Translations under genes and position numbers: made by a program | In this document: positions 8,159 to 39,442 of the stretch, piece by piece | Numbering within the stretch: the stretch's first letter is position 1 | Layout of the letters: each line of letters opens with the position of its first letter | NCBI GenBank assembly: GCA_038045705.1 | Contig: JBBSXO010000001.1 | Coordinates: 96,001-160,000 of the forward strand | From: Nanobdellota archaeon | Lineage (GTDB): Archaea; Nanobdellota; Nanobdellia; Pacearchaeales; GW2011-AR1 | DNA length: 64,000 nt | Reading direction: 5' to 3' | The notes under the pieces: generated by a model | The model's input: only the letters and a program-made list of their open reading frames with translations | Told to the model about the DNA's origin: nothing | Database searches by the model: none

Positions 8159-8168
8159 ACATCAATCC

Positions 8169-10960: not shown

Positions 10961-11177
10961 TGAAATCTCCAATCTTTAGATTGGAGTTAAGTTATTATGT
11001 TGGAGATTATCAACTGTACTCCCAAAACACTAGCAAACTCATCAAAGTTTTGTGATGTCGATAGTGTTTCACACAAACCACGCCCTTTAGGGTGTGTTCA
11101 ACACTTCGATCATCCAAAAATCGAGCACCAATTCAAACCACACACTTTAGTGTGTGGTGGTGCATCGATTTTTTGAT
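10961..11177. repeat. Palindromic REP/PATE-like cluster (copy 1 of dispersed element, 11055-11177)
   Basis: Three hairpins with TTTA loops (CTCCAATC/GATTGGAG, CACGCCC/GGGTGTG, ACCACACAC/GTGTGTGGT); homologous to 51756-51850. Confidence 0.8.
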
Positions 11178-11274
11178 TTAACATAAATTTTCAAGATGAG
11201 TAAAGTTTATATATCGAACAAAATCTCAATAGGTACTACTTCTCTTATCCGAGTAAGTAGCTGGAGCTCATAAA

Positions 11275-22892: not shown

Positions 22893-23399
22893 TTATGAGC
22901 ATAATTTTGCCTGAACAACTATGTTCCCAGGAAACTGAGGTATAAAATAAGAGTTACCTATGTAATTATTGCTACAATTCCCTTGATTTATGGAGAATAT
23001 TTCTTCTCCTTGCCCGCTCGAAGAATTAGAGTTATATTTACCTACAACTTCATATCCTTTGTAAGGGTATTCTGGACCAACTTTCCAAGTAGCATTGAAC
23101 ATGCTTACAATAGCACCTTCAACAGATTCACAAGAATTAGATCCACTTAAGCAAGAGTTATCGAAAGAATGGCATTCCTTTATCAATTCATTAAGTGCAA
23201 GGTTTTTACCGTTTACCCTTATAACACAATCAGTTGTCTGCTCCATAGAACTTTCAATAAACTGGTATAATATCTCGCTATTCTTTTGAACAGGTTCTGG
23301 ATTTCGTAACTTTATTCCTATAAATATAACCAATGCAATAGCTAAAATTACAACAATAAGCACAAAGCCAACTATCTCCTCTTGACCCTTTTTCTTCAT
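22893..23399 (-). CDS. Pilin-like protein, class III signal peptide
   Basis: MKKKG/QEEIVGFVLIVVIL; Cys pairs. Confidence 0.8.
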   Translation of the reverse strand: MKKKGQEEIVGFVLIVVILAIALVIFIGIKLRNPEPVQKNSEILYQFIESSMEQTTDCVIRVNGKNLALNELIKECHSFDNSCLSGSNSCESVEGAIVSMFNATWKVGPEYPYKGYEVVGKYNSNSSSGQGEEIFSINQGNCSNNYIGNSYFIPQFPGNIVVQAKLCS

Positions 23400-23401
23400 A
23401 A

Positions 23402-23920
23402 TTATGATACTCCCTCAAAACCCATCAATATTTTACCAAGTTCACATTTAGTCTGTTTAATCTCATTGTCAAATCTACAAAGAGAAACAAAAGACTCGTA
23501 AGCCTCAAAATCTCCTTTATTTACAAGAGTTATTTCATTACATCGTGGATAACTTTCAGTAGTACACTCGCTTGTTTCATACAATGGATAAACTCTACTA
23601 ATCTTAATTAATGAAACATCAGTCCAAAATCCTTTGTAGGAGTTTCTTTCCTTAAGCAAAAACAATTTATCTAAATCTACACAGGAGCTACAATCATCAG
23701 AACTAATCCAATTAAATTCAGGAGTTCCAGCCATCTTTCTGACTTGTGTTAAAACTGCCTCTTTTCGCAAATCATCTACATCTCCTCTTAAAGAACTAAA
23801 TCTTATAGAAACAAAGAAAACAGAAACTATTCCAAATAGAATAATTATTGCAACTATAATAAAAACCATTTGTTGTATTTTAAACTGACCTTTAGAATAT
23901 TTTACATGAAGCAAGTTCAT
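23402..23920 (-). CDS. Pilin-like protein, class III signal peptide
   Basis: SKG/QFKIQQMVFIIVAIII; SD AGGAGG precedes the ATG at 23920. Confidence 0.78.
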   Translation of the reverse strand: MNLLHVKYSKGQFKIQQMVFIIVAIIILFGIVSVFFVSIRFSSLRGDVDDLRKEAVLTQVRKMAGTPEFNWISSDDCSSCVDLDKLFLLKERNSYKGFWTDVSLIKISRVYPLYETSECTTESYPRCNEITLVNKGDFEAYESFVSLCRFDNEIKQTKCELGKILMGFEGVS

Positions 23921-24839
23921 TATTCCTCCTTTCCAAATCTTTTGCAATAGGGATAACTTGTCTTACAAAATCCCTTGAATTATTTATATTTGCTACAAGG
24001 ATAAAATTTTGTAAATCTGAGACGAGATTATTAGAACAACCACTGCCTTCAACATATATAGCCTTCTTAGAATAAACAACTGCCAGTTCAGAAGCCCTTT
24101 TCATTAATCTTTTGACTTGACACTCATATATTTCATAATCTGAAAGTATTGCACCAAGCATAAGATTGTCCCCATCATAATACATATCTTTTCCAGATTT
24201 ACTTACAACCTTAGACATAGTGTTTACATTAATATCACATCCTATTCTATCAAAACATACTTTAGTTGAATTTGCAGGACAAGATAGGATATTAGTAGAA
24301 ATGTTTATTCCTATATCTTGCTTGCCATCAGCAGACAAATCTAAAATTAACTCTTCAATGTCATTTGTAGGATTAACAAAACAATATTTTTGCCCATAAA
24401 TAGAGATTATATCTCCTATTTTAAAAGGAGCAAATATAGGATTAACCATAACATTTAGTTTATCATTCTTAGTTTCTTCAATCTTTCTAGAAAATATATA
24501 TTTGTTATAAACTGACTTTCTAACGCTTTGTTCACTCCATTCATCTCTTGATTTTGATGCTGTGCTTAATCTTTGTATTCCGAAAGCTCCATCAGTAGAA
24601 CATTCATTGTAAACCTTGGTATCTGTAGCAAATTCAATTACAGAATATTTGTTATCTTCAAGATTTGTTTCAACAGGGTTAAGTAAGTTAGCAAGCTCTC
24701 CTGCAACTAAAGTATCTCTCTTAACATCGCTAGAATTGATTAATTGAGATGTTATATAAATAGCAGAAGCAAGTATCACTGCTCCCGCAATAATAGCGAA
24801 TATCCAACTAAATGTAAAATCTATTCCTTTTTTATTCAT
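23892..24839 (-). CDS. Pilin-like protein, class III signal peptide
   Basis: MNKKG/IDFTFSWIFAIIAGAVIL. Confidence 0.8.
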   Translation of the reverse strand: MNKKGIDFTFSWIFAIIAGAVILASAIYITSQLINSSDVKRDTLVAGELANLLNPVETNLEDNKYSVIEFATDTKVYNECSTDGAFGIQRLSTASKSRDEWSEQSVRKSVYNKYIFSRKIEETKNDKLNVMVNPIFAPFKIGDIISIYGQKYCFVNPTNDIEELILDLSADGKQDIGINISTNILSCPANSTKVCFDRIGCDINVNTMSKVVSKSGKDMYYDGDNLMLGAILSDYEIYECQVKRLMKRASELAVVYSKKAIYVEGSGCSNNLVSDLQNFILVANINNSRDFVRQVIPIAKDLERRNNELASCKIF

Positions 24840-25335
24840 GTTGCACTTTAACAAGAGATTCAAATTCTCCTTTGGACAGCCTTATGTTTACTTTTCTATT
24901 TACAGATTCAAAACAATCAAAAGTTCCAAGAGAAGAAATGTCTATTTTATCTATTTTTTTGAAAGCAAATTCATTAGCTTTTTCAGGGGGATAAATAAAC
25001 ATGTTTGTATTTTCTTGTTGAAATCTTGAAGAGCTTTGTCTTAAAGATTTTAATTGTGAAGTATATCTTCCAGCATCAATATTGTTAGCAATAGATCCAA
25101 AGCAAACAAACTTTACAGAACTAGGAGTTGAAAAACTAACCACTTTATTTGTAGTAGCAGAACTCCAAATATCATTTACTGAATTTTGAAATTCTTCGTA
25201 AAAAAGTCCAATTTCGGCAACGCTTCCAACTTGTAAAAAGATAGTTATTCCGTAAACAGCAACTCCAATAAGTGCAATTATTATGATCACAGAGAAAATC
25301 ATTCCAAATGAGATTTCAATAGATCCCTTTACCAT
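24832..25335 (-). CDS. Pilin-like protein, class III signal peptide
   Basis: MVKG/SIEISFGMIFSVIIII. Confidence 0.8.
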   Translation of the reverse strand: MVKGSIEISFGMIFSVIIIIALIGVAVYGITIFLQVGSVAEIGLFYEEFQNSVNDIWSSATTNKVVSFSTPSSVKFVCFGSIANNIDAGRYTSQLKSLRQSSSRFQQENTNMFIYPPEKANEFAFKKIDKIDISSLGTFDCFESVNRKVNIRLSKGEFESLVKVQHE

Positions 25336-25336
25336 T

Positions 25337-27409
25337 TTATCTTATATTTGTTGCACTAGCTACTAAAGAACAGCTATTAGGTCCAGGCTCATTATCAAAA
25401 GTATCTCTACATTTAATATAATATGCAATATTAGGTTTCCATTCAGCATAATGACTTTTCTTGTTTGAAGTTGAAATATAAAGCAATTCAATCCCTTCAT
25501 CAAAATTAAAGTTACAGCTATTCAAGGAATAAGCACAAGCAGCATCTTCATTAGTAACTATTTTTAAAGCATTATTAGAAGAATCTCTGTAAGCTCTAGT
25601 AATTAAAGGTGCAAATGTATCCACAATAACTGAAAAACTTACTTCAGCCTCAGCAGCATTTCCTCCATAATCAACACATCTAAATTTATAATTATAATTT
25701 CCAGTTGGCAAATTAAGTCTTTGTGAATGTTCAACAGCATCAGTTTCAAACATCAGAACATAACTATCGGGCAATCCAGTAGAGCTAAATGAGCAAATAG
25801 ACACTCCTTCATTTGCCCCATCATCTGTTGTAACTCTCAAATCCACTGGAACTGTATTTGTATTTCCAGTAGCTGTTCCATTAGGAGATACAAAGATTAT
25901 ATTCAACGGTTGCGAACCTATCAATTTATAATTATAACTTGCAACGTTAACATTTCTCTCTTCTTCTGCTTTTGAAGGCTGGTCTTTACATCTTACAAAA
26001 AAGTTGTTTTCCTGTCTATCTACAATTCCATTGAGATTAGTTGAACAGGTATACAATTCACGCGCATTTATTTGAGTGAGAGAAGTAGCACAGCTCATAG
26101 TATTTTCCATAACTGAATATTCTTTACTTTGAGCGCTCCATTTACATGTTGCAGGTTCATTAATGTAAAATTGAACTGGTACAGATTGAACTCCAAATTT
26201 AACATAACTCCCACTAGGAATAGAAGTCTCAACTATTACTGGAGCAGTTGTATCAGGACTAGGGTCAACACATAACTGAACAGCATATTCATCAACATTC
26301 TCATTCCCATTTTTATCTCTGCATCTTACAAAGAAATCATATTTCCCATCTGCTTGTAATTCTGGAAGTTCAGCATTAAGAGAATCTGGCGAAGGCAGAC
26401 TAAATTGTTGGGTATGATTATATAAATACAAATTAGTATTTCCGAAAAGGAATTGCATTTCATCGAATGAGTCTTTATGTTCTAAATCTAACTTACATTG
26501 GCTTGCCTCATTAGTTGTAATTCCAAAAGTAAGTGGTGTAAACGCTTGCAAGCAACCATCTGTAGCACCATTTCTAACTATTTTAGTTCCTAGTGAAGTT
26601 GGTCTTGTTTCATGATTTGTATATCTATGGTTTTCAGTCAATGGTTCTGTCCAAGGAGTTATCGTCGGAGAAGTAGCATCATTAGGGTTTACCCAGACAC
26701 ATTTCTCATCAGTAGTTCCAACGTTTACAAGTTCACAAGCTTGTCCTAAACTCCTGCAACGATATTCAGAGCAAGGTCTAAAGGAATCTTTGTTACACTC
26801 TTCGCAATCATTCCCACCAATTGGAGCTTCATAAGGTAAACATTGGAAATTTACAACTTTAGAAGATTCTTTTTTATACATAATCGCATAAACAACGACG
26901 GCAATTCCAATAGCCCACAATGTTGCTCCTCCAGAAGCTCCTAAAAAGTTTGGATCTGCAAAACCCAAACTATTAAACAAGTTAGTGCTACCTTGAGCCT
27001 CTAAAAACCCAAACCTTCCAATTGCAACACCAATTCCTAAAGCAGCAGATGCAGCCTTTTTTTGATTATCATCGAGCCCAAGAAAGTCTCCTGCAAAATA
27101 AACAACTCCATAAGCAATTCCTCCCCAAATTAGCCCGGATAATAAACTACCCACAAAACCTTCAATACCCAAAGGTGTTCTTCCAAGAATATCAGTGTTT
27201 GGTTCAGGAGGTGGAGGTTCAGGACTAGGACTTGCTTTGAGCCCTGCATTTCCAGATCTTGCAGCTAATAACGCTCCAGGACCTACACCTTGTGCACTAG
27301 TCAATAAACTCTCATGAATCAAAAAAGCAAAACTAAAGACCGCTAAGATTATAATTAAAATATGCGAAATTGCAATACTTTTTAGAACACCACCTCTTCG
27401 ATAAAACAT
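25337..27409 (-). CDS. Secreted Cys-rich protein with Gly-rich hydrophobic segment and Ig-like repeats; paralog of the C-terminal half of 31995-35654
   Basis: Signal ending LTSAQ; GLIWGGIAYG...LGIGVAIG; FQCLPYEAPIGGNDC; repeated TNE.A.C...Y.VRC.D..GN. Confidence 0.8.
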   Translation of the reverse strand: MFYRRGGVLKSIAISHILIIILAVFSFAFLIHESLLTSAQGVGPGALLAARSGNAGLKASPSPEPPPPEPNTDILGRTPLGIEGFVGSLLSGLIWGGIAYGVVYFAGDFLGLDDNQKKAASAALGIGVAIGRFGFLEAQGSTNLFNSLGFADPNFLGASGGATLWAIGIAVVVYAIMYKKESSKVVNFQCLPYEAPIGGNDCEECNKDSFRPCSEYRCRSLGQACELVNVGTTDEKCVWVNPNDATSPTITPWTEPLTENHRYTNHETRPTSLGTKIVRNGATDGCLQAFTPLTFGITTNEASQCKLDLEHKDSFDEMQFLFGNTNLYLYNHTQQFSLPSPDSLNAELPELQADGKYDFFVRCRDKNGNENVDEYAVQLCVDPSPDTTAPVIVETSIPSGSYVKFGVQSVPVQFYINEPATCKWSAQSKEYSVMENTMSCATSLTQINARELYTCSTNLNGIVDRQENNFFVRCKDQPSKAEEERNVNVASYNYKLIGSQPLNIIFVSPNGTATGNTNTVPVDLRVTTDDGANEGVSICSFSSTGLPDSYVLMFETDAVEHSQRLNLPTGNYNYKFRCVDYGGNAAEAEVSFSVIVDTFAPLITRAYRDSSNNALKIVTNEDAACAYSLNSCNFNFDEGIELLYISTSNKKSHYAEWKPNIAYYIKCRDTFDNEPGPNSCSLVASATNIR

Positions 27410-27471
27410 ACTTGCTTAATGAAATAATTCTTTATAAATATTAGTAAAACTAAAAAGCTAAAATATTCTAA

Positions 27472-27963
27472 CTATCTTTCCATAATCTCAACATTATAAC
27501 CGCCCATCGCATTTCTATCAAGGGTAAAATAAAGATAAACACTTGTAGGGCTATCAAACGAAATAGAACTATGGGGAGAAGAGTTACTTAATTGTAAGAT
27601 TCTAGTATCAATTATTCTTTCATCCCCTGTTCCATTATATTTAACATAAATTCCAAATGTTTTTCCTTGACAGTTTTGCTGAGTTGCTCCAAAGACAAAT
27701 TCTTCTCCTACATAAAATGTAGTCCTTCCTTTATTTACAATCTCAGTTCTTGGATCCAAGAAACCATCTCCATTACTATCTTTAAAATCACTCCCAATAA
27801 AAGGCATACAAGTGATGTTATTATTGCCTTGACCTCTAGCAGTCACACGTGCATGATGATCTGCAATAATAAGACCTCCAAGAAGCTGAGCACAACCCGT
27901 AAGAGGCAAAGTAGCCCCTAAGATCATCCCCGCCAAGCCTAGATCTTTAGTCCTAGATTTCAT
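27472..27963 (-). CDS. Hypothetical lipoprotein
   Basis: Lipobox LPLTGC; DSNGDGFLD Ca-binding-like loop; own TATA/BRE. Confidence 0.65.
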   Translation of the reverse strand: MKSRTKDLGLAGMILGATLPLTGCAQLLGGLIIADHHARVTARGQGNNNITCMPFIGSDFKDSNGDGFLDPRTEIVNKGRTTFYVGEEFVFGATQQNCQGKTFGIYVKYNGTGDERIIDTRILQLSNSSPHSSISFDSPTSVYLYFTLDRNAMGGYNVEIMER

Positions 27964-28029
27964 TTTCAGGTACGATTCATAGATTAAACGAATATTTAAA
28001 TCTTTCTGTTACTTAATAGTTACAAAAAT

Positions 28030-29043
28030 TCAAAACAAGCTATCTCTAGAAAAGAAAATTCCAAGTAAAATTATAATTATTTGGAAAATCCATATAGCAT
28101 AAACTGCATTTTTTTCTGTAGACCTAATTCCTATTTTTTTCAAAACTAAAATAGAAAGATGATTCAAACTGTAAATTTTATTATGCTGATTTTCCAGTGT
28201 CCCATCTTTCATAGGTTTACCGAAAGAACTTTTTTTAAGTTTTCCACGAGATTTTAATATGACTTCAATAATATAAGGGATGTAAAAGAAAATAGCAATC
28301 TTCTCAAAATTGCCTACAATTGCAATAGCCGCAATCATAACACCAACAGAATATGTCATAACATCTCCAGGAAAGACTCTGGCAGGAAATTTATTGAATT
28401 TCAAAAATCCAATTAGCGCGAGAACCATACATAAACAAACTATTGAAAGCCATGCGCTTCCATTAATGTAAGAGACAAAAGCCATTCCCGATAGCAAAAT
28501 TATTCCCTGACCAGCTTCAAGACCATTGAACCCAGCAAGCATGTTAAAAGTAGTTGTAGTTGCAACAACCCCTAAAGGTATCAAAAACAAAGGATAAACT
28601 AAACCCCAATCAATGACTCCAAAAATTGGAAAATTCATTGAACTTTCTCCAGCTTTTATTGCAATAAGAGGTATCGCTCCAAAGATAGCCAGTAAAATTC
28701 TCACTCTCCCAGAGAGTCCTCCACGCCTCCACCCGAATAAATCATCTATGAAACCAATAAATCCCATAAAGATAACCATAACTAGAATTACAAATATTTC
28801 TAAAAGAAAACCATTCGAACTTTCAAGCAAAAAGACCCTATATGTAACATAACTAAGAACACTTAACAAAAATGCAAGCAAAACAATCAAACCACCAGAG
28901 CCAGAGACTTTCTCACTATCTATTTTATTCATATCCTTCCACACAAGGCCCACAAATCTTACCTTACGTATCCACCAAGGCATCAAAGCTAAAACTGTAA
29001 TCAAGCTTATTGCCAGAGGCAACAACAAAATATAAGATTTCAT
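28030..29043 (-). CDS. UDP-GlcNAc:dolichol-phosphate GlcNAc-1-P transferase (AglH/GPT, glycosyltransferase family 4)
   Basis: KDMNK, GFIDDL, FNMLAGFNGLE, PARVFPGD. Confidence 0.9.
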   Translation of the reverse strand: MKSYILLLPLAISLITVLALMPWWIRKVRFVGLVWKDMNKIDSEKVSGSGGLIVLLAFLLSVLSYVTYRVFLLESSNGFLLEIFVILVMVIFMGFIGFIDDLFGWRRGGLSGRVRILLAIFGAIPLIAIKAGESSMNFPIFGVIDWGLVYPLFLIPLGVVATTTTFNMLAGFNGLEAGQGIILLSGMAFVSYINGSAWLSIVCLCMVLALIGFLKFNKFPARVFPGDVMTYSVGVMIAAIAIVGNFEKIAIFFYIPYIIEVILKSRGKLKKSSFGKPMKDGTLENQHNKIYSLNHLSILVLKKIGIRSTEKNAVYAIWIFQIIIILLGIFFSRDSLF

Positions 29044-29081
29044 TCAAAGAACAGCTATTTATTATTTATAAGACTTATCAA

Positions 29082-30632
29082 TTATTCTTGTCCGCCTATA
29101 ACTATTTTGTAACCTTTATTGTAACCTTCTTTACCTAACCAATTTAAGCTAGGTCCGCAATCACCTAACATCTTACACAAATCTGCTTTCTCTTTTTGCC
29201 AATTCTCTTCAAGACATTCACAACCAGAAACGCATTTTTCCCCACCATCAAACAATCCTTTTTCAAATTTAACAACACAAACATTATTTCCTAAAGAACA
29301 TATGTTTGATGTTTCAGCATCACTCCAGAAGTTAAATCCTGGTTTATTTTGAGGGAAACAAGTTCCTACTCTATCTTGAGTCTGGTTTTGTAAAGCTTGC
29401 AATAATACATCTTTCCAAACACAGTCTCTAATATCTTCATTTTCACAAGATGACTTGTCAATTTGATTTACGCAATCCTGCCATCTGTTTACTTTACAGG
29501 CTGCTTGTGAAAAATCATTTATAGTATCAGAAATACATTCCTCCGCTCTGAAGTCCTCACATTGTTCTAAAACTTCTTCCCCATTTATGCAAACATGTTT
29601 ATAGAATCTGCTTCCTACAGTATTATCTGTATTTCCAAAGCCTCCTGCATCATTGTAAACACACCAACTTTCTCCATGTCTGTAATTTTTACCATCTTGA
29701 GTATTTTTACAATTTAAATCAGCACAGATATTATCTCCATAAGTTGGACTCTTTCCAGCATCATTTTCGCTTCGGCAAATGCTACCCTGTAAATAATCGC
29801 AATTTCCACATGAAGAACTCAAAGCATTTCCATTTTCAGGATTACATGAGTTATCTACAGTTATTACATTGCTCCAATATAATTGATCTTCTAGCTTAGA
29901 AGAGTCATAAATATTTGCAGGATTCCCACAAGTATCTACAAAATAAACTCCATCTTTTCCAGGAACACAAGTAGTCTTAGTACTTGGTCCGCATATAGTC
30001 CCTAGTTCTTCAGCAGAACATAATTTCCCTGCGTAGAATGTCCCACCAACAATAGAAGCATTACTAGTTTGAGTATTACATTCAGCCCTAGTTCCGAATT
30101 TGCAAGTATCTTCAAACTCGAATTCATACACACATGCACCAACTTCTTGCTGTTGAACTTTTTCTATACAAGCAAGTTCACTTCCAACACTAGTATCATA
30201 ATTTGTCTCTAAACCCAAATAAGAACTTAATCTTTTGCATCTAACAAGAGAAACATAAGCTGCTTGATCTCCAAGAATACAACATCCCAAAGAACACTGA
30301 GGTGGTTCTTCTTCACTCCATACACCACCATTAGCATTACAAACTAGTTGAGGCGTATTATCAAAGCAAGTTCCTTCAGTAGAATCATAGCAAGTTCCAG
30401 CCTTACAATAACTTGTAGATTCACAACTTGTAGGTACTTGTCTACTTCCAGGCTTACATTCAGAAGAAGGAACATTTTGACAAAAAGCTCCTGTATCTGT
30501 TTGCTCGCAACAAACAGTTGCAAGTTGATTTCCAACATTAGGATTATTAGGTGTTCCAGTCTGCTGTGCAATAACAAAACTAGCAAAGGCTAAAAGTATT
30601 ATTCCAAAAAGTAAAATTATCTTTTTATTCAT
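29082..30632 (-). CDS. Secreted Cys-rich protein; paralog of the N-terminal half of 31995-35654
   Basis: Signal MNKKII...VIAQQ; GTCYDS, GCCILG, GKDGVYFVDTCGNPANIYDSSKL, HGESWC, LGDCG. Confidence 0.8.
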   Translation of the reverse strand: MNKKIILLFGIILLAFASFVIAQQTGTPNNPNVGNQLATVCCEQTDTGAFCQNVPSSECKPGSRQVPTSCESTSYCKAGTCYDSTEGTCFDNTPQLVCNANGGVWSEEEPPQCSLGCCILGDQAAYVSLVRCKRLSSYLGLETNYDTSVGSELACIEKVQQQEVGACVYEFEFEDTCKFGTRAECNTQTSNASIVGGTFYAGKLCSAEELGTICGPSTKTTCVPGKDGVYFVDTCGNPANIYDSSKLEDQLYWSNVITVDNSCNPENGNALSSSCGNCDYLQGSICRSENDAGKSPTYGDNICADLNCKNTQDGKNYRHGESWCVYNDAGGFGNTDNTVGSRFYKHVCINGEEVLEQCEDFRAEECISDTINDFSQAACKVNRWQDCVNQIDKSSCENEDIRDCVWKDVLLQALQNQTQDRVGTCFPQNKPGFNFWSDAETSNICSLGNNVCVVKFEKGLFDGGEKCVSGCECLEENWQKEKADLCKMLGDCGPSLNWLGKEGYNKGYKIVIGGQE

Positions 30633-31387
30633 GCTAATCCTTGGGGCCAAACAAGACTCCTAGTTGCAAAATCAAATTTATCTTCGCTGGTGACATCACT
30701 TAGTTGATAAATTGTTGAACCATCATCACGCCTGGTCTTTTCAATTACAAGATTAGGATAATAAGAAATATATAAACTTGTCTCGCTATCTCCAAAAGTT
30801 GATTCATACTGTATGATATTAACTGCAGTATTTATCAAAGTGTACCAGTTAGAATCAATTGCAACAGAAAATTTTTGGAAAGTTTGAGTATCTTCTTTTA
30901 TTAAAGTAAGTGGAGCAACAAAATCCACATATATATTTTCAGGCACAATGCCTACACTAATGTTACTAGTACCACTTCTAACTTCATAACCCTTTCTTTC
31001 ATATTGGTCTTTCAAATCTTCAAAACATTGTTTTGCTCTAGGTTCAATATGTTTTTTTATTTCTTCTTGAACATGCCTCAATAAAAGAGGTTGTTGAACA
31101 GAACAAGGTGTATAAAATTGAGAAGTATAACACAAATATTGCAATTTCATATCATTATACATTGCATAATTATCCGGATTAGTATATCCGCCTTGAACAC
31201 TTAAAACATCTTTAATATTTGTAATTTCAGGTTCTATACAGCTCCTCAAATAAGAGCTAGGATTTACACTTGAAGAAAAAACATTTGCTTGAGGAAAAGC
31301 AAAGATAACAATTATTACAGCAACAACAATAATTGCAAGTATGACAAAAATAGTGACTTGTCCTTTTCTATCATCTCTTTTCATCAA
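30629..31387 (-). CDS. Pilin-like protein, class III signal peptide; paralog of 35645-36409
   Basis: RKG/QVTIFVILAIIVV; YLRSCIE; QGG; YLCY; FATR. Confidence 0.82.
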   Translation of the reverse strand: MMKRDDRKGQVTIFVILAIIVVAVIIVIFAFPQANVFSSSVNPSSYLRSCIEPEITNIKDVLSVQGGYTNPDNYAMYNDMKLQYLCYTSQFYTPCSVQQPLLLRHVQEEIKKHIEPRAKQCFEDLKDQYERKGYEVRSGTSNISVGIVPENIYVDFVAPLTLIKEDTQTFQKFSVAIDSNWYTLINTAVNIIQYESTFGDSETSLYISYYPNLVIEKTRRDDGSTIYQLSDVTSEDKFDFATRSLVWPQGLA

Positions 31388-31496
31388 TCTTTAAGAGATT
31401 TTTTGTTTATAAATATAGTGAAAGACTTTGAAATTTTATGAGTCTTTCACTAATAGAAAGGAATTCTCTTTTCTATAATTGCTTGAAATCCTTTTC

Positions 31497-31994
31497 TTAC
31501 AGTAATTCTTTTGAGTCAACTAGATAATGAACTGGAAATTGCATTTTTACATCTCCTCTTTTAATAACTACATATGCTTCATTTACTCTTGCACCATGAT
31601 TTTGGATAACTTCTGCAGTTTCTCTTATACTTCCTCCAGTAGTAAACACATCATCAACTATAGCAACTAAATCATCTTTTTTAGGTATATATCCTTCTAT
31701 CCATTTTCTTAAGCCATGCTTTTGAGGACTATCTCTGACTATAGCAAGAGGAATATTTTTTACAAGCGAAACAGTTGTTGCAAGAGAAATTCCCCCGTAT
31801 CCTTTTCCAACAACACAAGTGGAATTTTTATTTATTTTTTCAGCAATTGCTTCGCCAATTTTCTTCAAGAGCTTAGGGTCACCATAAGCTTTCTTAACAT
31901 CAAAATAAGCAGTACTCTCTTCTCTCCCTCTTAATCTAACATTTCCTCTAACAACAATATCTGCTTCTCTTAATAATTTGACTAATTCAGTCAT
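31497..31994 (-). CDS. pyrE: Orotate phosphoribosyltransferase-like (type I PRTase)
   Basis: YFDVKKAYGDP, KHGLRKWIEG, VAIVDDVFTTGGS. Confidence 0.85.
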   Translation of the reverse strand: MTELVKLLREADIVVRGNVRLRGREESTAYFDVKKAYGDPKLLKKIGEAIAEKINKNSTCVVGKGYGGISLATTVSLVKNIPLAIVRDSPQKHGLRKWIEGYIPKKDDLVAIVDDVFTTGGSIRETAEVIQNHGARVNEAYVVIKRGDVKMQFPVHYLVDSKELL

Positions 31995-34900
31995 TTAATA
32001 TCCACCACTAACTGTCAAACAAGATCCTACATTTCCAAATGTATCTCTACACTTTATCTTATAAGTTAATCCATTAGAATAAGGCATTGTATGAACTCTA
32101 CTTGCACCACTTAAAGCTGTGCCTGTTTCAAACTCAAATGAGCATGTAGAAGTTGAGTATTCACAAATAGAAGCCTCATTAGTTATCACATTCAAACTAT
32201 TTCCTGAATTGTATACTCTTGTTATCAAAGGTCCAGTATTATCAACTTCAATAATAAATTGAGCACTTCCTTCAACAATATTTCCAGCTCTATCTGTGCA
32301 CCTTAATCTTATGTCATAACTTCCAGCAAACAAAGTATCCCAAGTTTGTCTGTGGTTACTCAAACTTGTTGTAAAGAAATCAATATAACTATTTCCATCA
32401 AAAGAATATTTACAGGATGCCTCGCCAGACTCTATTCCTCCAGCAGTTACAACTTCCAAAGTAACGGAAACAGGTTCGGTTGCAGATAGTATTGTTCTAT
32501 CATCGGGAGTAACAGAACTTATTGTCAAAGGAGTAGTTGTCCTTCTAACTTCATAAGGAATACTTTGAGTATTTTTGTTTCTTCCTTCTATTAGAGTAAC
32601 TGAAGATTGTTGAATATTTACTCCGAGCCATGGCTTATCAGCACACCTGAAATAATAATTATTAGTATCTTGTGAAATAGGTAGTGTTGCACTGCACAAC
32701 CAACCACGAAGAGTTGATTGACTTATAGCATTATCACAATTAGCTTCATTTTCCATTAATTCATATTCCTGATCAGTTGTGCTGAATTTACAAGTAGCAG
32801 GCTCATCTGTATAAAATTGTAAATTATAAGAACTTGAATTCAAACCAGTAATTCCAGGGCTTTCAGGACTAAATCTTGATATCTTCGGAGGTTGCAAGTC
32901 GTCTTCAGGAGAAACACAAAATCTTATATCATAAGCATTATCATTTGAGTTCCCACTTTTATCATCACATAATACATATAAATTGTAATCTCCTCTTCTA
33001 CTAGGATTGATTCCAGGCACTTCAAGAGAGTCAAGAGTAGGCATAGCAGTGTTTTCATTATGTCTTGAAACATAAGCATTAGCACTACTGTCAAAATAAG
33101 TATCGTCCATTTCTTCATAGTTGCTAGGTCTGGTGGAAGATATTTTACATTGGCTTGGCTCGTTTGTCACAATTCCAAAAGTAACGACAGAATATTCTTG
33201 TAAACATCCATCTCCGCTTGAGCTTTTTATTTCAACACCATTTGTAAATTCTTCATAAGTAAATCCTTGAGCAAGAGAAGTCTGATTAAATGAGATATCT
33301 GGAGCAGTAGCATCATTTGGATTGATATTAACACAAGCTTCATTTTCAGTTTCAGGATTTATGAGTTCACATGTTTTTCCAAGACTAGCACATTTGTAAG
33401 CAGTGCATTCTACCCCTAGAGAATCACATTTAGCACAGTTATCTCCACCAGAAGGAGGTTGCCAAGGCAAACATTTAAATTCAACTTTCTTTTCCCTATA
33501 TTCGCCAACACCAGCAACCGAGAGTACTACTATAGCTACAACAATTATTATTGCCGCAATCCATCCGACAACAGGTGCAACCGCTAGAGTTGGAACAAGT
33601 TCAACTAATCCAATATAAAGAAGTCCAGCTGCAGCACCAATAACAACTGCAGTAGTTAGTTCATCTCCTTCTAACCCTAAAGCCAGCCCTATAATATAAC
33701 CTATTCCTGCACCAACTAATGCTCCATTTGCAGCTCCTGTCCATCCAGTAACATGGAACCATGAAGGAGCAAGAATAGCAGATCCACTAGATAATGTTGC
33801 CAGAGCTCCAGCAGCTCCCAAACCTAGTTGACTAATTTGTCTTGCAAGAGCATTAGGGTCTTCAAAATTAAAATCTGTTCCGAATAAAGCTTCAATTTGT
33901 TCTTCAGTAAAAGTAGAAACTCTTTGTCCAGGTTTTGGAGTAATATACTTTTTCAAACCTTCCACATAATCATCAGAGATTTTAGGGCTTCTATCTCCGC
34001 TTGTCGAATATCCCTTTCCAAGTTCTCCTGCCAAGTTTACATGACTTCCACAATCACCTAAGCTCATACATAGATTATTCATTGTTTCTGCAAATTTTGC
34101 CTCTTTACATTCACAGTTTATTTTGCAAGTCCACCTTCCTTCTATATTCTTTTTTTCATAATATGTGCAAGTCTGCGTTGCAGCTTTACATATAGACTCT
34201 GAATCTGGCTGAGGCTCATCAGCTAATTCAAGTCCGGGAGGATACTTAGGAACACAAACATCAAACTTCCATTTATCAATTTCAACATGTTTCAAATAAC
34301 AATCAGGGCTTTCCTCACATTTAGCAAGTTTATCAGCATTTTCATTATAGCTCGTACACAAACTTCCGGTATTTGTTCTACATTGAGCATTTGTAAAACT
34401 ATCAGTAACATCTTGTTCAACACAAACACCATTTCTATATTCTGCGCAAGGCTCAAGTCTTACTTCTCCTTCAGAACAAAATTTTTTATAATGTCTGCTT
34501 CCCGGAACATCAACTGCCCTTTCTTCATTACTGGCATTCTGACCATCAAGTCCAATCCATGAATCAAAAGCACACCAACTTTCCCCATGTTCTTTTCTCA
34601 CTCCATTGTCAATGCATGCCAAATCTTTACAGACATATTGTCCATAGATAGATGTTTCATCGAGTCCTGACTGTGGAGACCCGCAAGTATTTCCAGCAAG
34701 ATAATCGCAGTTTCCACATCTTTGTTGATTTGCCAAACTATCACTTCCAGAAGATAAAGAACAAATTCGTTCAATAGGCACTATCGAACTCCAATAAGCT
34801 AAATTATTTAGTTTGCTTGAGTCATAAATATTAGCTTTATTACCGCAACTATCTACAAAATAGATTCCATCTTTACCATCAAAACATTGAGTATTTTGAG

Positions 34901-35654
34901 TCATTTCACATTTAGTATTAAGATCAGGATTAGTGCATAATTGGCCAACGTAAAAATCTCCTCCATTAGTCAAACAACTAACTTCAGTTGTAAATTGACA
35001 ATTGTATTTATCAAGTTCAGGCAAAAATTCTAAAACACAAGCCCCTTCTCTTTGAGTTCTAACTCTAGATAGACATTGAATCTCACTTTGAATTTGTGGA
35101 TCCCACTCAGTAGGCGCTCCTGAACTCTGACGCAGATTAGTACATTCTTGACTTGTCGCAAATCTAGCTTGACTTGCTCCACCATTTCCATCTGGTCCAA
35201 TTAAACAACATCCTCTATTGCATTGAACCGGAGTTTGAGCAGACCAAACTCCCCCTTCATCCTCGCAAGAAGCTCTAGGAGTTCCAGCATTACATAGCCC
35301 AAGACTAGAATCATAACAAGTTCCTAATTGGCATGATGAAAATTCAGTTCTTCTTCCAGGAAAACAAGAGCTAGTGCATTGAGAGTCACATGTCTCGGAA
35401 GGGTACTCTTGACAATAAGAACCAGAATTGTCTACCAAACAAGTCTTAACAGAAGTTTGCGCAGAAACAAGACCATATGACAAATAGTTAAGAACTTTTT
35501 CTCTAATTAATAAAATAAATTTAGATTCTTTGCTTTCAACAGGTAAGTATTCAATTAAAGAATTAGTCTCACTCATAATATATGCAAAAGCAATTCCACT
35601 AAGCAAAATCAAAGTAATTTCAAATAATCCAATTACTTTTTTAGTTAAAACCAT
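31995..35654 (-). CDS. Giant secreted Cys-rich protein with central Gly/Ala-rich hydrophobic hairpin and C-terminal Ig-like repeats
   Basis: N-terminal TM/signal ending LVSAQ; Cys-rich domain; GAANGALVGAGIGYIIGLALG...GWIAAIIIVVAIVV; start moved to MVLTKK. Confidence 0.82.
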   Translation of the reverse strand: MVLTKKVIGLFEITLILLSGIAFAYIMSETNSLIEYLPVESKESKFILLIREKVLNYLSYGLVSAQTSVKTCLVDNSGSYCQEYPSETCDSQCTSSCFPGRRTEFSSCQLGTCYDSSLGLCNAGTPRASCEDEGGVWSAQTPVQCNRGCCLIGPDGNGGASQARFATSQECTNLRQSSGAPTEWDPQIQSEIQCLSRVRTQREGACVLEFLPELDKYNCQFTTEVSCLTNGGDFYVGQLCTNPDLNTKCEMTQNTQCFDGKDGIYFVDSCGNKANIYDSSKLNNLAYWSSIVPIERICSLSSGSDSLANQQRCGNCDYLAGNTCGSPQSGLDETSIYGQYVCKDLACIDNGVRKEHGESWCAFDSWIGLDGQNASNEERAVDVPGSRHYKKFCSEGEVRLEPCAEYRNGVCVEQDVTDSFTNAQCRTNTGSLCTSYNENADKLAKCEESPDCYLKHVEIDKWKFDVCVPKYPPGLELADEPQPDSESICKAATQTCTYYEKKNIEGRWTCKINCECKEAKFAETMNNLCMSLGDCGSHVNLAGELGKGYSTSGDRSPKISDDYVEGLKKYITPKPGQRVSTFTEEQIEALFGTDFNFEDPNALARQISQLGLGAAGALATLSSGSAILAPSWFHVTGWTGAANGALVGAGIGYIIGLALGLEGDELTTAVVIGAAAGLLYIGLVELVPTLAVAPVVGWIAAIIIVVAIVVLSVAGVGEYREKKVEFKCLPWQPPSGGDNCAKCDSLGVECTAYKCASLGKTCELINPETENEACVNINPNDATAPDISFNQTSLAQGFTYEEFTNGVEIKSSSGDGCLQEYSVVTFGIVTNEPSQCKISSTRPSNYEEMDDTYFDSSANAYVSRHNENTAMPTLDSLEVPGINPSRRGDYNLYVLCDDKSGNSNDNAYDIRFCVSPEDDLQPPKISRFSPESPGITGLNSSSYNLQFYTDEPATCKFSTTDQEYELMENEANCDNAISQSTLRGWLCSATLPISQDTNNYYFRCADKPWLGVNIQQSSVTLIEGRNKNTQSIPYEVRRTTTPLTISSVTPDDRTILSATEPVSVTLEVVTAGGIESGEASCKYSFDGNSYIDFFTTSLSNHRQTWDTLFAGSYDIRLRCTDRAGNIVEGSAQFIIEVDNTGPLITRVYNSGNSLNVITNEASICEYSTSTCSFEFETGTALSGASRVHTMPYSNGLTYKIKCRDTFGNVGSCLTVSGGY

Positions 35655-36409
35655 CCAGCAGGTAAAGCACACCCCCTTGTAGCCATCGTTAAACTCTCAC
35701 CTGTCTTTTTATTTTTGACAGTATAAATCTTTGTTGTATCTTCCATCATATAGACTCTTATGTCATACTCTGGGTAAAGTATCATAAATCCATCATTGCT
35801 AAAGTAACACCATTTAGCTTCTTGAGCAACTATTTCATTTACAACAAAACCAATACTTTGTATTTTAGTAAAAACAAAAGTATCAAATCTACTAAATTTA
35901 CGAGAATTATCTGATTTAGTTATAGTAATATCTCCCTCCAAAGAGATTTCAACGACTTCAGGTTTGAATTTAGCTTCGACTTTAACTTGCCCAGAGTCAG
36001 AGATTTCATAATTTCTCGCAGTTAATTCTTCTTTTAATGCAGAAAAACATTGTTGAGCATCATCTTGAATATTTTCATTAAATTCTTTTTCAATTTGAGT
36101 TACATAAAGTGGAAATTGATTAATACAAGGTTCAAAATTATTTATATTTTTACACAAATAAGGAATGTTTTTTGTTCTATATAAAACAGTATCTTCAGCA
36201 GAAACAAGACCACCATTAGAAAGCATTTCATCAATAAGCAATTCAGCCCGTTCATTAATGCAAGTTCTCAAATAACCTTCAGGATTATCAAAATCCTGCT
36301 CTCTTAATGAGACACTTCCCCTATTTATTAATATCACAACAAAAACAACTGCTACAATAATTATTGCAATAATTACAAAAACAGTAACTTGTCCTTTTTT
36401 TTCCATCAT
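35645..36409 (-). CDS. Pilin-like protein, class III signal peptide
   Basis: KKG/QVTVFVIIAIIIV; YLRTCIN; NGG; YLC; MATR. Confidence 0.82.
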   Translation of the reverse strand: MMEKKGQVTVFVIIAIIIVAVVFVVILINRGSVSLREQDFDNPEGYLRTCINERAELLIDEMLSNGGLVSAEDTVLYRTKNIPYLCKNINNFEPCINQFPLYVTQIEKEFNENIQDDAQQCFSALKEELTARNYEISDSGQVKVEAKFKPEVVEISLEGDITITKSDNSRKFSRFDTFVFTKIQSIGFVVNEIVAQEAKWCYFSNDGFMILYPEYDIRVYMMEDTTKIYTVKNKKTGESLTMATRGCALPAGWF

Positions 36410-37843: not shown

Positions 37844-39442
37844 GTGGAAGAGGTATCTGAAAAGGAAAAAAGGATAAGAGCAATAACAAGATTATACTAT
37901 TCAAACCCCAAAGTCCAGGAGGCTTTACTTTCTTTCGCAAAAGACAGAGAAGTTGTTCCCCGGTATTTTGAATCCTTTGGGAAAAGACCAGATACATTAC
38001 AATATAATTCAGACATAATGGGTCTAGTCAATAAAGGGGCTACCTCATTTCATGCTTCAGAAGAGATATGGAATGATCCTCTAGCAATAAACTCTGACAT
38101 GAATCAAAAAGAGTTAACTGAATGTAGAAAATCATGGGATTTACTAATAGATATTGACTCTCCTTTTCTAGATTATTCAAAAATAGCAGCAGTATTGCTT
38201 GCAGATGAATTAGAAAGATATGGAATATCCAGTTATAAAATAAAATTCAGTGGCAGTAAAGGATTCCATTTAATTGTTCCAGGAAACAGTTTTCCAGAGA
38301 CGTTAGATAATATTGAAACAAAAAAGATGTTTCCAGATTGGCCAAGAGCAATTGTCCAATATTTAATGGTAAGAATAAAACAGAATTATAATTCAAAAAT
38401 AAAAGAATTAGGGATAAATTTTGATGCTGTAAAAGAAAGAATGAATTTATCAGAAACAGATTTAGTTTCTGTTCAGTGTCCTAACTGTAACAAGCCAGTA
38501 AATAAAACTAATTTTATAGAGTTTGCTTGTGAGAAGTGTGGTAACCCTTATAGCAGGCCAGACTATAAAATAACAAAGAAAAAAATAAGGTGTATGAATG
38601 AAAGCTGTTCTGGTTTTTTAGAAGTTAGAAAAATAATAGAAGATTATCTTTTCTGCAATAATTGTAAAACAAAGCTTAATTTAAATCAGGATAGTTTCCA
38701 ATTAAATACAAGAAATAAAATACAGGAATCAAGAGAATCAAAAAACAGTTTAATTGTAAATGAATTTAAAGAAGAATTAGCTGGAGAAAAGATAGCTTCT
38801 TTAGACTTAGTTTTAGTAGCCTCAAGGCATTTATTTAGAATGCCTTATTCATTACATGAAAAAACTGCTTTAGCAAGTGTAGTTCTTGACAAATCTGAAA
38901 TTATGCAGTTTACTCCAAAAGACGCAAGCCCTATGAAAGTTACAATAAAACCATTCTACAAAATAAATGATAAAAAAGAAGCAACTGAATTGCTAAAAGA
39001 TGCTTTAAAATGGTCTGAACAGAATGAAATTTCTTCCCAATCTAATAAAAAGAGAATATCTGAAGAATATGTAGCAGACTATACTGGAGTTACGGAAGAA
39101 ATGTTTCCTCAATCAATAAAACAATTGTTAAAAGGGTTACAGGAAGGAAGAAAAAGAGGTCTATTTGTTCTTTTAACTTTTCTTAGATGTTTGAATTATC
39201 CTGATGATTATGTATCTCAAAAGATTAATGATTGGAATAAGAAAAACGACCCTCCTCTAAAAGAGGGCTATGTCAAATCCCAGTTAGACTGGCATTTTAA
39301 ACAAAAAAAGAAAATCCTTCCACCTAATTATAGTAATGACAGTTTTTACAAAGATTTAAAGTTAATAGATAAAAAGCCATTAGAAAAAAACCCGTTAGTT
39401 GAAGTTTCAAGAAAATTAAGAAAATCTATTTCAAATCAATAG
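37844..39442 (+). CDS. DNA primase, DPANN-type PriS-PriL fusion with Zn-ribbon insert
   Basis: WDLLIDID, FSGSKGFH, HLFRMPYSLH; C-terminal GRKRGLFVLLTFL...NDPPL...KNPL. Confidence 0.9.
   Translation: MEEVSEKEKRIRAITRLYYSNPKVQEALLSFAKDREVVPRYFESFGKRPDTLQYNSDIMGLVNKGATSFHASEEIWNDPLAINSDMNQKELTECRKSWDLLIDIDSPFLDYSKIAAVLLADELERYGISSYKIKFSGSKGFHLIVPGNSFPETLDNIETKKMFPDWPRAIVQYLMVRIKQNYNSKIKELGINFDAVKERMNLSETDLVSVQCPNCNKPVNKTNFIEFACEKCGNPYSRPDYKITKKKIRCMNESCSGFLEVRKIIEDYLFCNNCKTKLNLNQDSFQLNTRNKIQESRESKNSLIVNEFKEELAGEKIASLDLVLVASRHLFRMPYSLHEKTALASVVLDKSEIMQFTPKDASPMKVTIKPFYKINDKKEATELLKDALKWSEQNEISSQSNKKRISEEYVADYTGVTEEMFPQSIKQLLKGLQEGRKRGLFVLLTFLRCLNYPDDYVSQKINDWNKKNDPPLKEGYVKSQLDWHFKQKKKILPPNYSNDSFYKDLKLIDKKPLEKNPLVEVSRKLRKSISNQ

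Follow-up and report, generated by a model that had tools for sequence, protein, structure and literature searches.

Surface glycoproteins of two disulfide-linked chains, and A/B toxins, are made by proteolytic cleavage. The archaeal fusexin Fsx1 (PDB 7p4l) combines a Cys-containing ectodomain with C-terminal membrane helices. Groundwater is rich in DPANN archaea of the Pacearchaeota type; they are uncultured and thought to be attached to hosts, and to our knowledge almost nothing is known about their surface. In the split genes of Nanoarchaeota and other DPANN archaea, as in gene fission generally, two pieces encode what is a single gene elsewhere, and both are kept (PMC11237513). Adhesin-like or S-layer-like proteins of archaeal type IV filament loci are big, secreted or membrane-bound, carry several Ig folds and many conserved cysteines, and are encoded beside class III-type small proteins and near an S-layer-like gene (Makarova et al. 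2016, PMC4858521; PLoS Genet 2026, PMC13705601). In the passages compared from these two papers, no family of the kind reported here is mentioned.

We analyzed a 64,000-nucleotide stretch of DNA (the window) and compared a locus in it with these systems. Judged from the sequences, the locus belongs to a tiny groundwater archaeon of the Pacearchaeota type (DPANN) and encodes a giant, disulfide-rich membrane surface protein in two paralogous forms. All coordinates below are those of the window, and all features lie on its minus strand. The fused protein (paralogue A) is encoded at 31995-35672, an ORF of 1225 aa starting with GTG at 35672; the database gene call (P0004) has 1219 aa from the ATG at 35654, the start used in the earlier note. 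The other paralogue consists of the N-half (29082-30650, an ORF of 522 aa with a TTG start), for which the database call (P0124, 516 aa) begins at the ATG at 30632, again the earlier note's start, and the C-half (25337-27409, 690 aa). The genome (844 kb, 10 contigs, 91% complete) contains only these three members of the family.

The earlier note had described the N-half (29082-30632) as collinear with the N-terminal part of the fused protein and the C-half (25337-27409) as matching its C-terminal part. BLASTP bore out both statements: the N-half aligned with fused residues 69-555 (35% identity, E 3e-81) and the C-half with residues 633-1214 (34% identity, E 2e-92), with all three ORFs on the minus strand. 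The motifs quoted there, namely GKDG(V/I)YFVD..ANIYDSSKL, HGESWC, LGDCG, F(Q/K)CLP(Y/W) and FGI(T/V)TNE, were all present in these alignments, and the N-half stops before the hydrophobic region as had been stated, about 60 residues ahead of the block at fused residues 615-727. Each of the two ORFs thus follows a different part of a whole homologue, in collinear order and without overlap, as is expected of a gene fission pair. Upstream of the fused gene lies a gene for a pilin-like protein (copy 1, 254 aa, 35645-36409), whose 3' end overlaps the start of the fused gene, and upstream of the N-half gene lies copy 2 (252 aa, 30629-31387), which overlaps the N-half start in the same manner. These upstream proteins are also paralogous (27% identity, E 2e-25), a point that the earlier note had overlooked. 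Thus, the duplicated unit is a two-gene module.

From its N-terminus onward, the whole protein comprises a membrane helix, the extracellular N-domain (490 aa, rich in Cys), a linker, about four membrane helices that make up a Gly/Ala-rich block, a small Cys module and about four Ig-like domains. In the fused protein, the N-domain occupies residues 69-555 (34008-35468), contains 43 Cys and aligns with the N-half; hydropathy, model and composition place the hydrophobic block at residues 615-727 (33492-33830); and the C-domain (31998-33491), which aligns with the C-half, begins with the Cys module (728-790) and continues with about four Ig/FN3-like beta-sandwich domains. The AF2 model of the fused protein had a mean pLDDT of 83.7, with about 90 for the N-domain, and a pTM of 0.54, at which the relative placement of the two ectodomains is not fixed by the model alone. 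The N-half modeled by itself had a pLDDT of 88.1 and a pTM of 0.69. As tandem beta-sandwiches, the C-domain matched Ig/FN3 arrays in Foldseek with E down to 8e-13 and in VIA with Z of 9-10 (for instance 9kvu_A, Z 9.5, rmsd 2.6, 92 aligned) over model residues of about 760-1199. This is a shared fold only and does not imply a function. For the N-half, Foldseek gave no match at E<=0.001 in either PDB or BFVD, and the best VIA score (Z 4.3) fell on a 35-residue miniprotein, so no known fold was matched. No protein of the module had a Pfam or NCBIfam family above the cut-off, and the PDB profile search returned only AopB, a weak match (E 0.12) over the hydrophobic block.

The earlier note had likened the split to the receptor-binding and membrane-inserting subunits of cleaved fusogens or A/B toxins. 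As a membrane-fusion or toxin-like machine of two subunits, the N-half would bind a receptor and the C-half would insert its hydrophobic segment into the target membrane. In formal terms, an ectodomain that consists of two chains, probably joined by a disulfide, and that carries a hydrophobic segment resembles cleaved viral glycoproteins and A/B toxins, and DPANN archaea are thought to contact host membranes. However, searches of PDB and BFVD revealed no resemblance to fusogens or toxins, whether in fold or in sequence. Fsx1 aligned with the N-half at noise level (VIA Z 2.7, rmsd 4.5, 56 residues) and was not among the matches listed for the whole-protein model; its domain order and gene context also differ from those of the giant proteins. 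A search of Pfam and NCBIfam detected no enzymatic, catalytic or toxin domain. Weak binary-toxin rows in the structure search with the N-half had E>0.5. The hydrophobic block (A 19%, G 17%) was modeled with low confidence as four helices between the two ectodomains and does not look like a fusion peptide. Cys-rich ectodomains lie on both sides of it, its end (KK/EYREKK) is stop-transfer-like, and the block looks like a resident membrane anchor. Moreover, the family gene adjoins PCNA in nearly every genome of the window's taxonomic family and belongs to the core chromosome rather than to a mobile element. We therefore regard a fusion or toxin machine as highly improbable. The analogy with cleaved glycoproteins and toxins would hold in one respect only, that is, two chains of which one is membrane-anchored, a single predicted ectodomain and a probably shared disulfide. 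Here, the chains come from two genes without cleavage, and no homology, fusion peptide, heptad-repeat or class II fold, or enzymatic chain was found; we do not claim membership in either group.

In a 96-row alignment (A1), mean identity was lowest in the hydrophobic block (29%) and the linker (31%). It reached 49% in the N-domain and 43% in the C-domain outside the Cys module, whereas that module, with 55%, was conserved best of all. The hydrophobic segment is thus the most divergent part, as had been noticed. The suggestion that it sets host specificity found no support: the divergence looks like weak constraint, and no link to host specificity appeared.

To the C-half, the earlier note had ascribed a signal peptide of its own just before the hydrophobic region. 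A hydrophobic N-terminus (residues 5-39) followed by the block (81-184) is indeed present. However, this segment matches the N-terminal helix of the whole protein: the consensus of whole proteins, KK.IalFEI.LLi..sfAFsY, corresponds to iAlsqIflLi..ifAFaf of the C-halves. The N-halves differ, with a short signal peptide ending in VSA-Q. Because the C-half begins with the counterpart of the whole protein's N-terminal helix, the sequence comparison indicates that the split excised the N-domain and that the chain was not simply cut in two. By this comparison, paralogue B was taken apart in this lineage: an ordinary signal peptide now exports its N-domain as a protein of its own, while the C-half has retained the N-terminal helix, now followed by a short loop, the membrane block, the Cys module and the Ig-like array of the C-domain. 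The cut coincides with a real module boundary, in agreement with the functional boundary proposed before. The case illustrates cleanly an uncommon path of gene fission: a membrane protein gives up one of its extracellular loop domains, which is then secreted from a gene of its own, and the membrane helices on either side of the loop stay together. Unlike the split genes described for Nanoarchaeota and DPANN, the whole and split forms are here paralogues in one genome, and the pieces are extracellular, each needing its own export signal. Furthermore, an internal loop domain was excised, the N-terminal helix stands on the "C" piece, and the state has flipped several times.

The family was found in genomes labeled Pacearchaeota or Nanoarchaeota. 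It was matched in 119 of the 121 sampled genomes of the window's taxonomic family and in 35 of 41 relatives, and the database records of it among those examined bear a hypothetical or spurious name. According to our reading of the search rows, a whole copy, an N-half and a C-half occur together in 11 of the 16 other genomes of the genus. When 14 loci were inspected, both halves were present at eight, the N-half only at two, an unsplit paralogue B in the same slot at three (G032, G081 and G048) and another arrangement at one. The unsplit paralogue B showed 41-47% identity to the N-half and 43-44% to the C-half, versus 32-36% to paralogue A. Thus, the pieces are intact across taxa and a whole orthologue occupies the same slot elsewhere, as in gene fission. 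N-half-sized homologues numbered 1585, and the best 120 were all about 420-565 aa long; among the best 150 C-half representatives, 131 stood alone with their own Met and a hydrophobic N-terminus, 12 were partial and 7 were fused. These widespread intact halves agree with the earlier view that the split is old and maintained, and the survey of fused and split states across genomes shows that it is not unique to this genome. The assumption of one ancient split is nevertheless too simple, since the state changes at least 6-8 times (undirected) on the C-domain tree.

Gene breakage or faulty assembly as the origin of the split copy has a probability close to nil, and conservation refutes it. Nothing but the bare presence of two ORFs speaks for it, whereas the same split with intact ORFs recurs across many genera, both halves come with a start and an export signal of their own, conservation extends to all 43 + 21 cysteines, and the window DNA is present in eight runs of two studies.

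In the window, two genes lie between the halves: one for a GT4 (MraY/WecA-type) glycosyltransferase (28030-29043; PF00953, E 7e-31) and one for a lipoprotein-like protein of 163 aa (27472-27963) with the N-terminal motif ..LTGC... The halves are adjacent in G024 and G062, and in the latter a gap of 30 nt containing two stops separates them. Thus, the genes between the halves in the window were inserted later. The glycosyltransferase gene was found between the halves in G012, G009 and G014 and was absent there in G024, G062, G124, G105 and G138, and at L015, L016, L021, L032, L035 and L036 the halves enclose genes that begin with a comparable signal and Cys.

Co-folding was performed with the N-half and the C-half without their membrane parts. 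The ipSAE, which is the model's own confidence, was 0.69 (0.69, 0.69 and 0.68 in the runs), and the best of three controls gave 0.00. The mark used was reached by 58 of 80 solved complexes and by 2 of 110 mismatched pairs; these counts are only a rough guide, because we used alignments of our own in place of calibrated ones. At least 68% of the contacts agreed between the runs, and the pLDDT of the partner was at least 72. In the predicted interface, N-half residues 318-520, including HGESWC and LGDCG (29091-29699), face C-half residues 185-223 (FQC190LPYE... of the Cys module; 26741-26857), and C190 touches C451, C492 and C498 of the N-half. The interface coincides with the most conserved stretch. 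The halves thus associate in the model, as the earlier proposal required, and this modeling supports the binding of the two halves to each other.

The fused protein contains 64 Cys after the start Met, the N-half 43 and the C-half 21. The count was odd in 104 of 115 N-halves and 123 of 132 C-halves. Of 125 whole proteins, 117 had an even count, and in 111 the N-part and the C-part were both odd. An odd number in each half and an even number in the whole suggest, at the level of sequence, an inter-chain disulfide between the halves, and the parity would also fit a single Cys in each half that is free or binds a metal. C47, the N-half Cys that four sequences lack singly, is not among the residues beside C190 in the co-fold, so that a disulfide partner on the N-half can be named only as a candidate. 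As for the description of the split copy as genetically pre-cleaved, the parity points to a disulfide-linked pair, but the likeness to fusogens and A/B toxins was not found.

Instead of re-associating, the halves might work independently after the split, with the N-half as a free secreted protein and the C-half as a self-sufficient membrane-anchored Ig-array adhesin. In G018, the N-half adjoins the four pilin-like genes and the only C-half-like frame (516 aa) lies about 210 kb away. The Cys-free loops of C-halves at the former site of the N-domain vary greatly, with 47-772 residues (median 298) before the Cys module, and several lineages have acquired additional genes between the halves. These observations suit such a subfunctionalization; we nevertheless consider it rather unlikely, because the co-fold passes while every control stays at 0.00, conservation in both proteins is highest at the predicted interface, the odd/odd/even Cys parity is kept in split and whole forms, and both halves co-occur in most genomes examined. 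According to the re-association that we prefer, the C-terminal third of the exported N-half would dock onto the membrane-proximal Cys module of the C-half and would probably be locked there by one inter-chain disulfide, so that the same ectodomain would be rebuilt as a two-chain complex. The whole and split paralogues offer a natural experiment, in which the modeled interface comprises about 40 C-half residues and the last third of the N-half, and they also indicate a candidate inter-chain disulfide.

Pilin-like copy 1 begins with KKG-QVTVFVII, after which comes a hydrophobic helix, and copy 2 begins with RKG-QVTIFVIL. The stretch right behind the C-half (22893-25335) contains four further small genes whose products have pilin-like N-termini (167, 323, 181 and 168 aa). 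A strict class III-type signal, with a short basic N-terminus, [KR][GA] at the cleavage site and a hydrophobic helix of some 20 residues, was present in 48 of 64 neighbor proteins from six families, and most of the remaining 16 have G, S or A and then Q without K or R. None of the six small neighbors matched a Pfam or NCBIfam pilin model, even at E<=5. In the other genomes, the copy 2 gene precedes either the N-half or the unsplit paralogue B. The block of four pilin-like genes follows the C-half or the unsplit paralogue B at L015, L016, L021, L033, L034, L035 and L036, and it follows the N-half at L019. Type IV machinery is present in the genome (PF01478, 1 match; PF00437, 3; PF00482, 4 in two loci; all above the cut-off). 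The prepilin peptidase, ATPase and platform genes are on contigs C3, C4 and C5 and the window is on C1, so the pilin-like genes of this locus are not clustered with ATPase or platform genes.

From this context, the giant proteins themselves could be modular pilin-like subunits whose conserved N-terminal helix, with Glu/Gln at about the fifth position, docks into the base or tip of a type IV filament that the neighboring pilin-like proteins would form. The helix motif with E or Q, often after [KR]G or [KR]A, occurs in whole proteins and C-halves; each giant gene is preceded and overlapped by a pilin-like gene, four more end the locus, and the machinery exists in the genome. In addition, large adhesin-like proteins with Ig folds are often encoded in the type IV filament loci of archaea (PMC4858521; PMC13705601). 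However, the window's fused protein lacks G or A before the helix (..TKKV-IGLFEI), many C-halves have a VSA-Q site after it as in ordinary signal peptides, and a four-helix membrane block in mid-chain is hard to square with extraction into a filament. The absence of a pilin family match, and of a neighboring ATPase or platform gene, also argues against it. We hold such subunits to be quite unlikely. In comparison with the adhesins in those papers, there is no common sequence family, the window locus has no ATPase, platform or peptidase genes, and the window protein possesses an internal four-helix block and a 490-aa Cys-rich domain without a fold match.

We therefore lean, with modest confidence, toward two paralogues of a membrane surface protein, one of them split into halves that re-dock, probably through one disulfide, and that form an adhesion or envelope structure together with the pilin-like proteins. 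In this structure, the giant proteins and the six pilin-like proteins of the operon would act at the cell surface, plausibly in host contact; the role in adhesion or in the envelope is one that we infer throughout. A surface role is favored by the Ig/FN3-like array of the C-domain, the class III-type signals of the neighbors, the type IV machinery of the genome and the nearby S-layer-like gene, whereas the siting of that machinery on other contigs speaks against the reading. A bolder idea, to which we give very little credence, is that the split paralogue is a "pre-cleaved", disulfide-linked version of a DPANN-specific host-contact machine. The paralogues and pilin-like proteins would then attach to the host membrane and perhaps open or bridge it, and flipping between whole and two-chain states would tune the release or exchange of the N-domain. 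The family is uncharacterized, with a large Cys-rich domain without a known fold, and it is nearly universal in the window's taxonomic family, where its operon, shared with genes of pilin-like and S-layer-like type, is conserved. The locus ends downstream with the gene for an S-layer-like protein of 878 aa (19513-22149; PF05124 S_layer_C, E 5.6e-6, above the cut-off), which is syntenic in G009.

The whole protein is encoded on the minus strand by a 1225-aa open reading frame (31995-35672); the database gene call P0004 starts at the ATG at 35654 and gives 1219 aa. The split copy consists of an N-half of 522 aa (29082-30650; gene call P0124, 516 aa from the ATG at 30632) and a C-half of 690 aa (25337-27409). 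The minus strand carries both of these and all other operon genes considered here, that is, both giant copies and their pilin-like neighbours. As the earlier note had described, the two halves are collinear with separate parts of the whole protein, residues 69-555 for the N-half (35% identity, E 3e-81) and 633-1214 for the C-half (34% identity, E 2e-92), and the quoted motifs are present in these alignments. The note did not remark on the genes upstream of the two copies. These genes, at 35645-36409 (254 aa, pilin-like 1) and 30629-31387 (252 aa, pilin-like 2), are paralogues of each other (27% identity, E 2e-25), and each runs into the start of its giant gene. Since the upstream genes and the giant genes are both paralogous pairs, the duplicated unit was a two-gene module. 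The giant family has only these three members in the genome of the window, an assembly of 844 kb in 10 contigs that is 91% complete. DNA of the window was found in eight DNA sequencing runs from two studies, from groundwater where the source was named, and no RNA run with this DNA was among the listed sequencing runs.

The earlier note had left it to a survey whether the split is unique to this genome. With the whole protein as query, 35 of 41 relatives gave a match at E<=1e-5, and at E<=1e-30 it matched in 119 of the 121 genomes sampled from the window's family, nearly always with one genome per genus. The C-half detected 28 genomes in a 151-genome sample of the phylum (E<=1e-8), and the matches outside the family were nearly all in frames of whole-protein size. 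By our reading of the matches listed in the relatives search, 11 of the 16 other genomes of the genus have a whole orthologue (61-72% identity) together with frames for the N-half (about 530 aa) and the C-half (about 700 aa). No family match was detected in two genus genomes, which are 75% and 82% complete. The N-half has 1585 matching proteins at E<=1e-10 (287-914 aa), of which the best 120 are about 420-565 aa long with 54-81% identity. Stand-alone N-halves are far better conserved than whole paralogue A (58% vs 32% identity at the 120th best match). For the C-half, a script classed the best 150 of 2305 representatives (E<=0.001) into 131 stand-alone proteins, defined by their own Met and a hydrophobic N-terminus, 12 partial and 7 fused. 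Thus, the split is widespread.

Gene order was determined by BLAST of ORFs in 14 fetched loci. The conserved order is PCNA, pilin-like 1, giant A (the whole protein in the window), pilin-like 2, giant B (split or whole), four small pilin-like genes and an S-layer-like gene. Both halves were found in eight loci, the N-half only in two (one of them at a contig end), an unsplit paralogue B in three, and one locus was of another kind. The unsplit paralogue B occupies the same slot in G032, a genome of another family, and in G081 and G048 of the window's family. These proteins are 41-47% identical to the N-half and 43-44% to the C-half, as against 32-36% to paralogue A; therefore, both halves derive from paralogue B. 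In the G032 locus, both giants are whole (4107-7871 and 8769-12464), both resemble the halves of the window more closely than they do its paralogue A, and a pilin-like gene precedes only the second. In G018, the four small pilin-like genes directly follow the N-half, and the sole C-half-like frame (516 aa, 13884-15287 on contig C1, matching residues 744-1216) is about 210 kb away.

In the window, two genes lie between the halves: a GT4 (MraY/WecA-type) glycosyltransferase (28030-29043, minus strand; PF00953, E 7e-31) and a lipoprotein-like gene whose signal peptide ends in G-C (27472-27963, minus strand). The halves are adjacent in G024 and G062, and in G062 the DNA shows them in one frame with a 30-nt gap containing two stop codons. 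Thus, the between-halves genes of the window came in after the split. The glycosyltransferase is seen at this place in the window's genus only. A lipoprotein-like gene in the same position was found in several genera in all (L015 12343-12960, L016 11158-11751, L021 5223-5978, L032 9978-10601, L035 9310-10302 and L036 9154-9711); these sequences are 27-29% alike within the window's genus, with no detectable likeness beyond it. The product of this gene could be a third component of the complex. A phosphoribosyltransferase gene (31497-31994, minus strand) is inserted between giant A and pilin-like 2, and this insertion is present in G012 and absent from G009.

The layout of the whole protein was derived from hydropathy and an AlphaFold2 model of residues 27-1225 built on 96 homologues (mean pLDDT 83.7, pTM 0.54; about 90 pLDDT in the ectodomains). 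An N-terminal membrane helix (residues 11-35) is followed by an N-domain of 490 aa that has 43 cysteines. About 60 residues of linker connect this domain to a Gly/Ala-rich hydrophobic block (615-727), after which come a small Cys module (728-790) and about four Ig/FN3-like beta sandwiches. The block was modelled at low confidence as four helices; an even number would place both Cys-rich parts outside the cell.

The construction of the split can be read from the termini of the proteins. Whole proteins (126) have the N-terminal consensus KK.IalFEI.LLi..sfAFsY, and C-halves (132) have iAlsqIflLi..ifAFaf with ..VSA after it; the two are one and the same helix. In contrast, 115 N-halves begin with a short ordinary signal peptide ending in VSA|Q, immediately ahead of the first Cys motif. 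A simple stop-codon fission is ruled out, because the N-terminal helix sits in the C-half. From the shared helix and the N-half signal peptide, the whole protein is best read as helix 1, an extracellular loop (the N-domain), the membrane block and the C-domain. By this reading, the split put the loop domain into a secreted gene of its own, with every membrane helix staying in one chain. It most likely arose through tandem duplication followed by reciprocal loss. In the C-halves, a Cys-free loop replaces the N-domain, with 47-772 residues ahead of the Cys module (median 298, window 184). Four stand-alone C-halves of 1077-1282 aa (P0338, P0367, P0270 and P0314) have a Cys-free Ser/Ala/Thr-rich region of 560-770 residues between helix 1 and the membrane block, for which no Pfam family was found. 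Very different inserts seem to be tolerated at the loop site.

The earlier note had regarded the split as old. In a FastTree phylogeny of 253 C-domains, paralogue A is a clade of 116 whole proteins, and paralogue B comprises 129 C-halves with 8 whole proteins scattered among them, so that the whole or split state requires at least 8 changes. A quick IQ-TREE tree of 55 rows, hand-picked so that all 8 whole clade-B proteins and their neighbours were among them, also needs 8 changes, at least 6 of which are forced by well-supported branches. Thus, one ancient split is too simple an account. In G048, the whole paralogues A and B (2706-6689 and 7681-11838 of locus L034) are nearly identical over the first ~30 residues and ~35-40% identical over the remainder, which suggests that the N-terminal helix may have undergone gene conversion between the two.

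Residues 185-690 of the C-half and 34-522 of the N-half were co-folded, each with a custom alignment and with the membrane parts excluded. The scores were 0.69, 0.69 and 0.68, as against 0.00 for the best of three controls; contacts agreed by at least 68% between runs, and partner pLDDT was at least 72. Among solved complexes 58 of 80 reach this mark, and among mismatched pairs 2 of 110; these counts are only rough here because custom alignments were used. Since no similar complex has been solved, the pass is not a memory of a known structure. The halves thus associate in the model, as the earlier note had anticipated. The predicted interface comprises residues 185-223 of the C-half, with the F-Q-C190-L-P-Y Cys module just past the last membrane helix, and residues 318-367 and 438-520 of the N-half, including HGESWC and LGDCG. 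The interface stretches are the most conserved (55-59% mean identity in the Cys module vs 25-29% in the membrane block).

Cysteine parity gives evidence independent of the co-fold model. The number of cysteines is odd in 104 of 115 N-halves (mode 43) and in 123 of 132 C-halves (mode 21, the first 35 residues skipped), whereas it is even in 117 of 125 whole proteins (mode 64 = 43 + 21), and in 111 of these 125 the N-part and C-part are both odd. The simplest reading is that one disulfide would join the N- and C-domains and would be inter-chain in the split form. In the co-fold, C190 contacts C451, C492 and C498 of the N-half, which are candidate partners. The only N-half cysteine lost singly is C47 (4 sequences), which differs from these three. 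The model and the parity together support a predicted association of the halves.

The C-domain matches Ig/FN3 arrays with Foldseek E-values down to 8e-13 and with VIA Z-scores of 9-10 (for example 9kvu_A, Z 9.5, rmsd 2.6, 92 aligned); searches with the whole model were dominated by such arrays. For the N-half modelled alone (pLDDT 88.1, pTM 0.69), Foldseek gave no match in the PDB or in BFVD at E<=0.001. VIA gave none among 48,161 chains at Z>=5; the top match was a 35-residue miniprotein (Z 4.3), and FnI/vWC-type small disulfide modules scored about Z 3. Provisionally, the N-domain, searched as one 522-residue model, would be a fold without a known counterpart.

In Pfam and NCBIfam scans that covered every protein of the locus, and were also run at E<=5, neither the giant nor the pilin-like proteins were assigned to a family; the sole signal was sub-threshold Ig-like matches (DUF4625, Big_13) in the C-domain. 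The six small pilin-like families had no match among the curated pilin models of these databases. A profile of 96 whole proteins had a single match among PDB sequences, AopB (E 0.12), which was rejected as compositional noise over the hydrophobic block. The ESM Atlas gave only unnamed clusters for the 254-aa protein and no usable named match for the N-half. Homologues are entered in databases as hypothetical or under names such as 'glycine zipper family', 'Yip1 family' or 'DMT family transporter', which evidently stem from the hydrophobic block. Searches of the literature, including term searches in the main text of individual papers, gave no description of the family. As kinds, gene fission and surface proteins with Ig arrays next to pilin genes are already known. 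New are the family itself, its Cys-rich domain without a fold match, the coexistence of whole and two-chain paralogues, and a split that took out a loop domain.

These results show a disulfide-rich protein that is extracellular and membrane-anchored and carries an Ig-like array; it is nearly universal in the window's archaeal family, and its locus also encodes six pilin-like proteins and an S-layer-like protein. In all six small families, a basic N-terminus precedes G or A, in most cases with Q next, and a hydrophobic helix of ~20 residues; the strict pattern [KR][GA] is present in 48 of 64 small neighbour proteins. Elsewhere in the genome, on contigs other than that of the window, are genes for a prepilin peptidase and three secretion ATPases, together with two platform loci. 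The conserved N-terminal helix of the giant protein may be a pilin-type docking helix or a plain anchor or signal. There is about an even chance that the protein acts in surface adhesion, or in an envelope complex, with the pilin-like proteins. Such a complex would resemble the large adhesin-like proteins encoded beside pilin genes in other archaea, as described in passages of PMC4858521 and PMC13705601.

The earlier note had compared the split copy with cleaved fusogens or A/B toxins. The comparison holds only insofar as there are two chains, one anchored and probably disulfide-linked to the other; fold, sequence and context gave no support for fusion or toxin activity, and the hydrophobic block appears to be a resident anchor of several helices. 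The block is, as the note had proposed, the least conserved part, but no tie of its divergence to host range was found. Two further large surface proteins are encoded nearby: one of 1145 aa (39426-42863, minus strand) with Laminin_G_3 (E 3e-29), Ig-like repeats and a C-terminal membrane helix, and a Cys-rich one of 622 aa (42954-44822, plus strand) with a C-terminal helix and a Pro-rich tail. The region is a neighbourhood of genes for cell-surface proteins.
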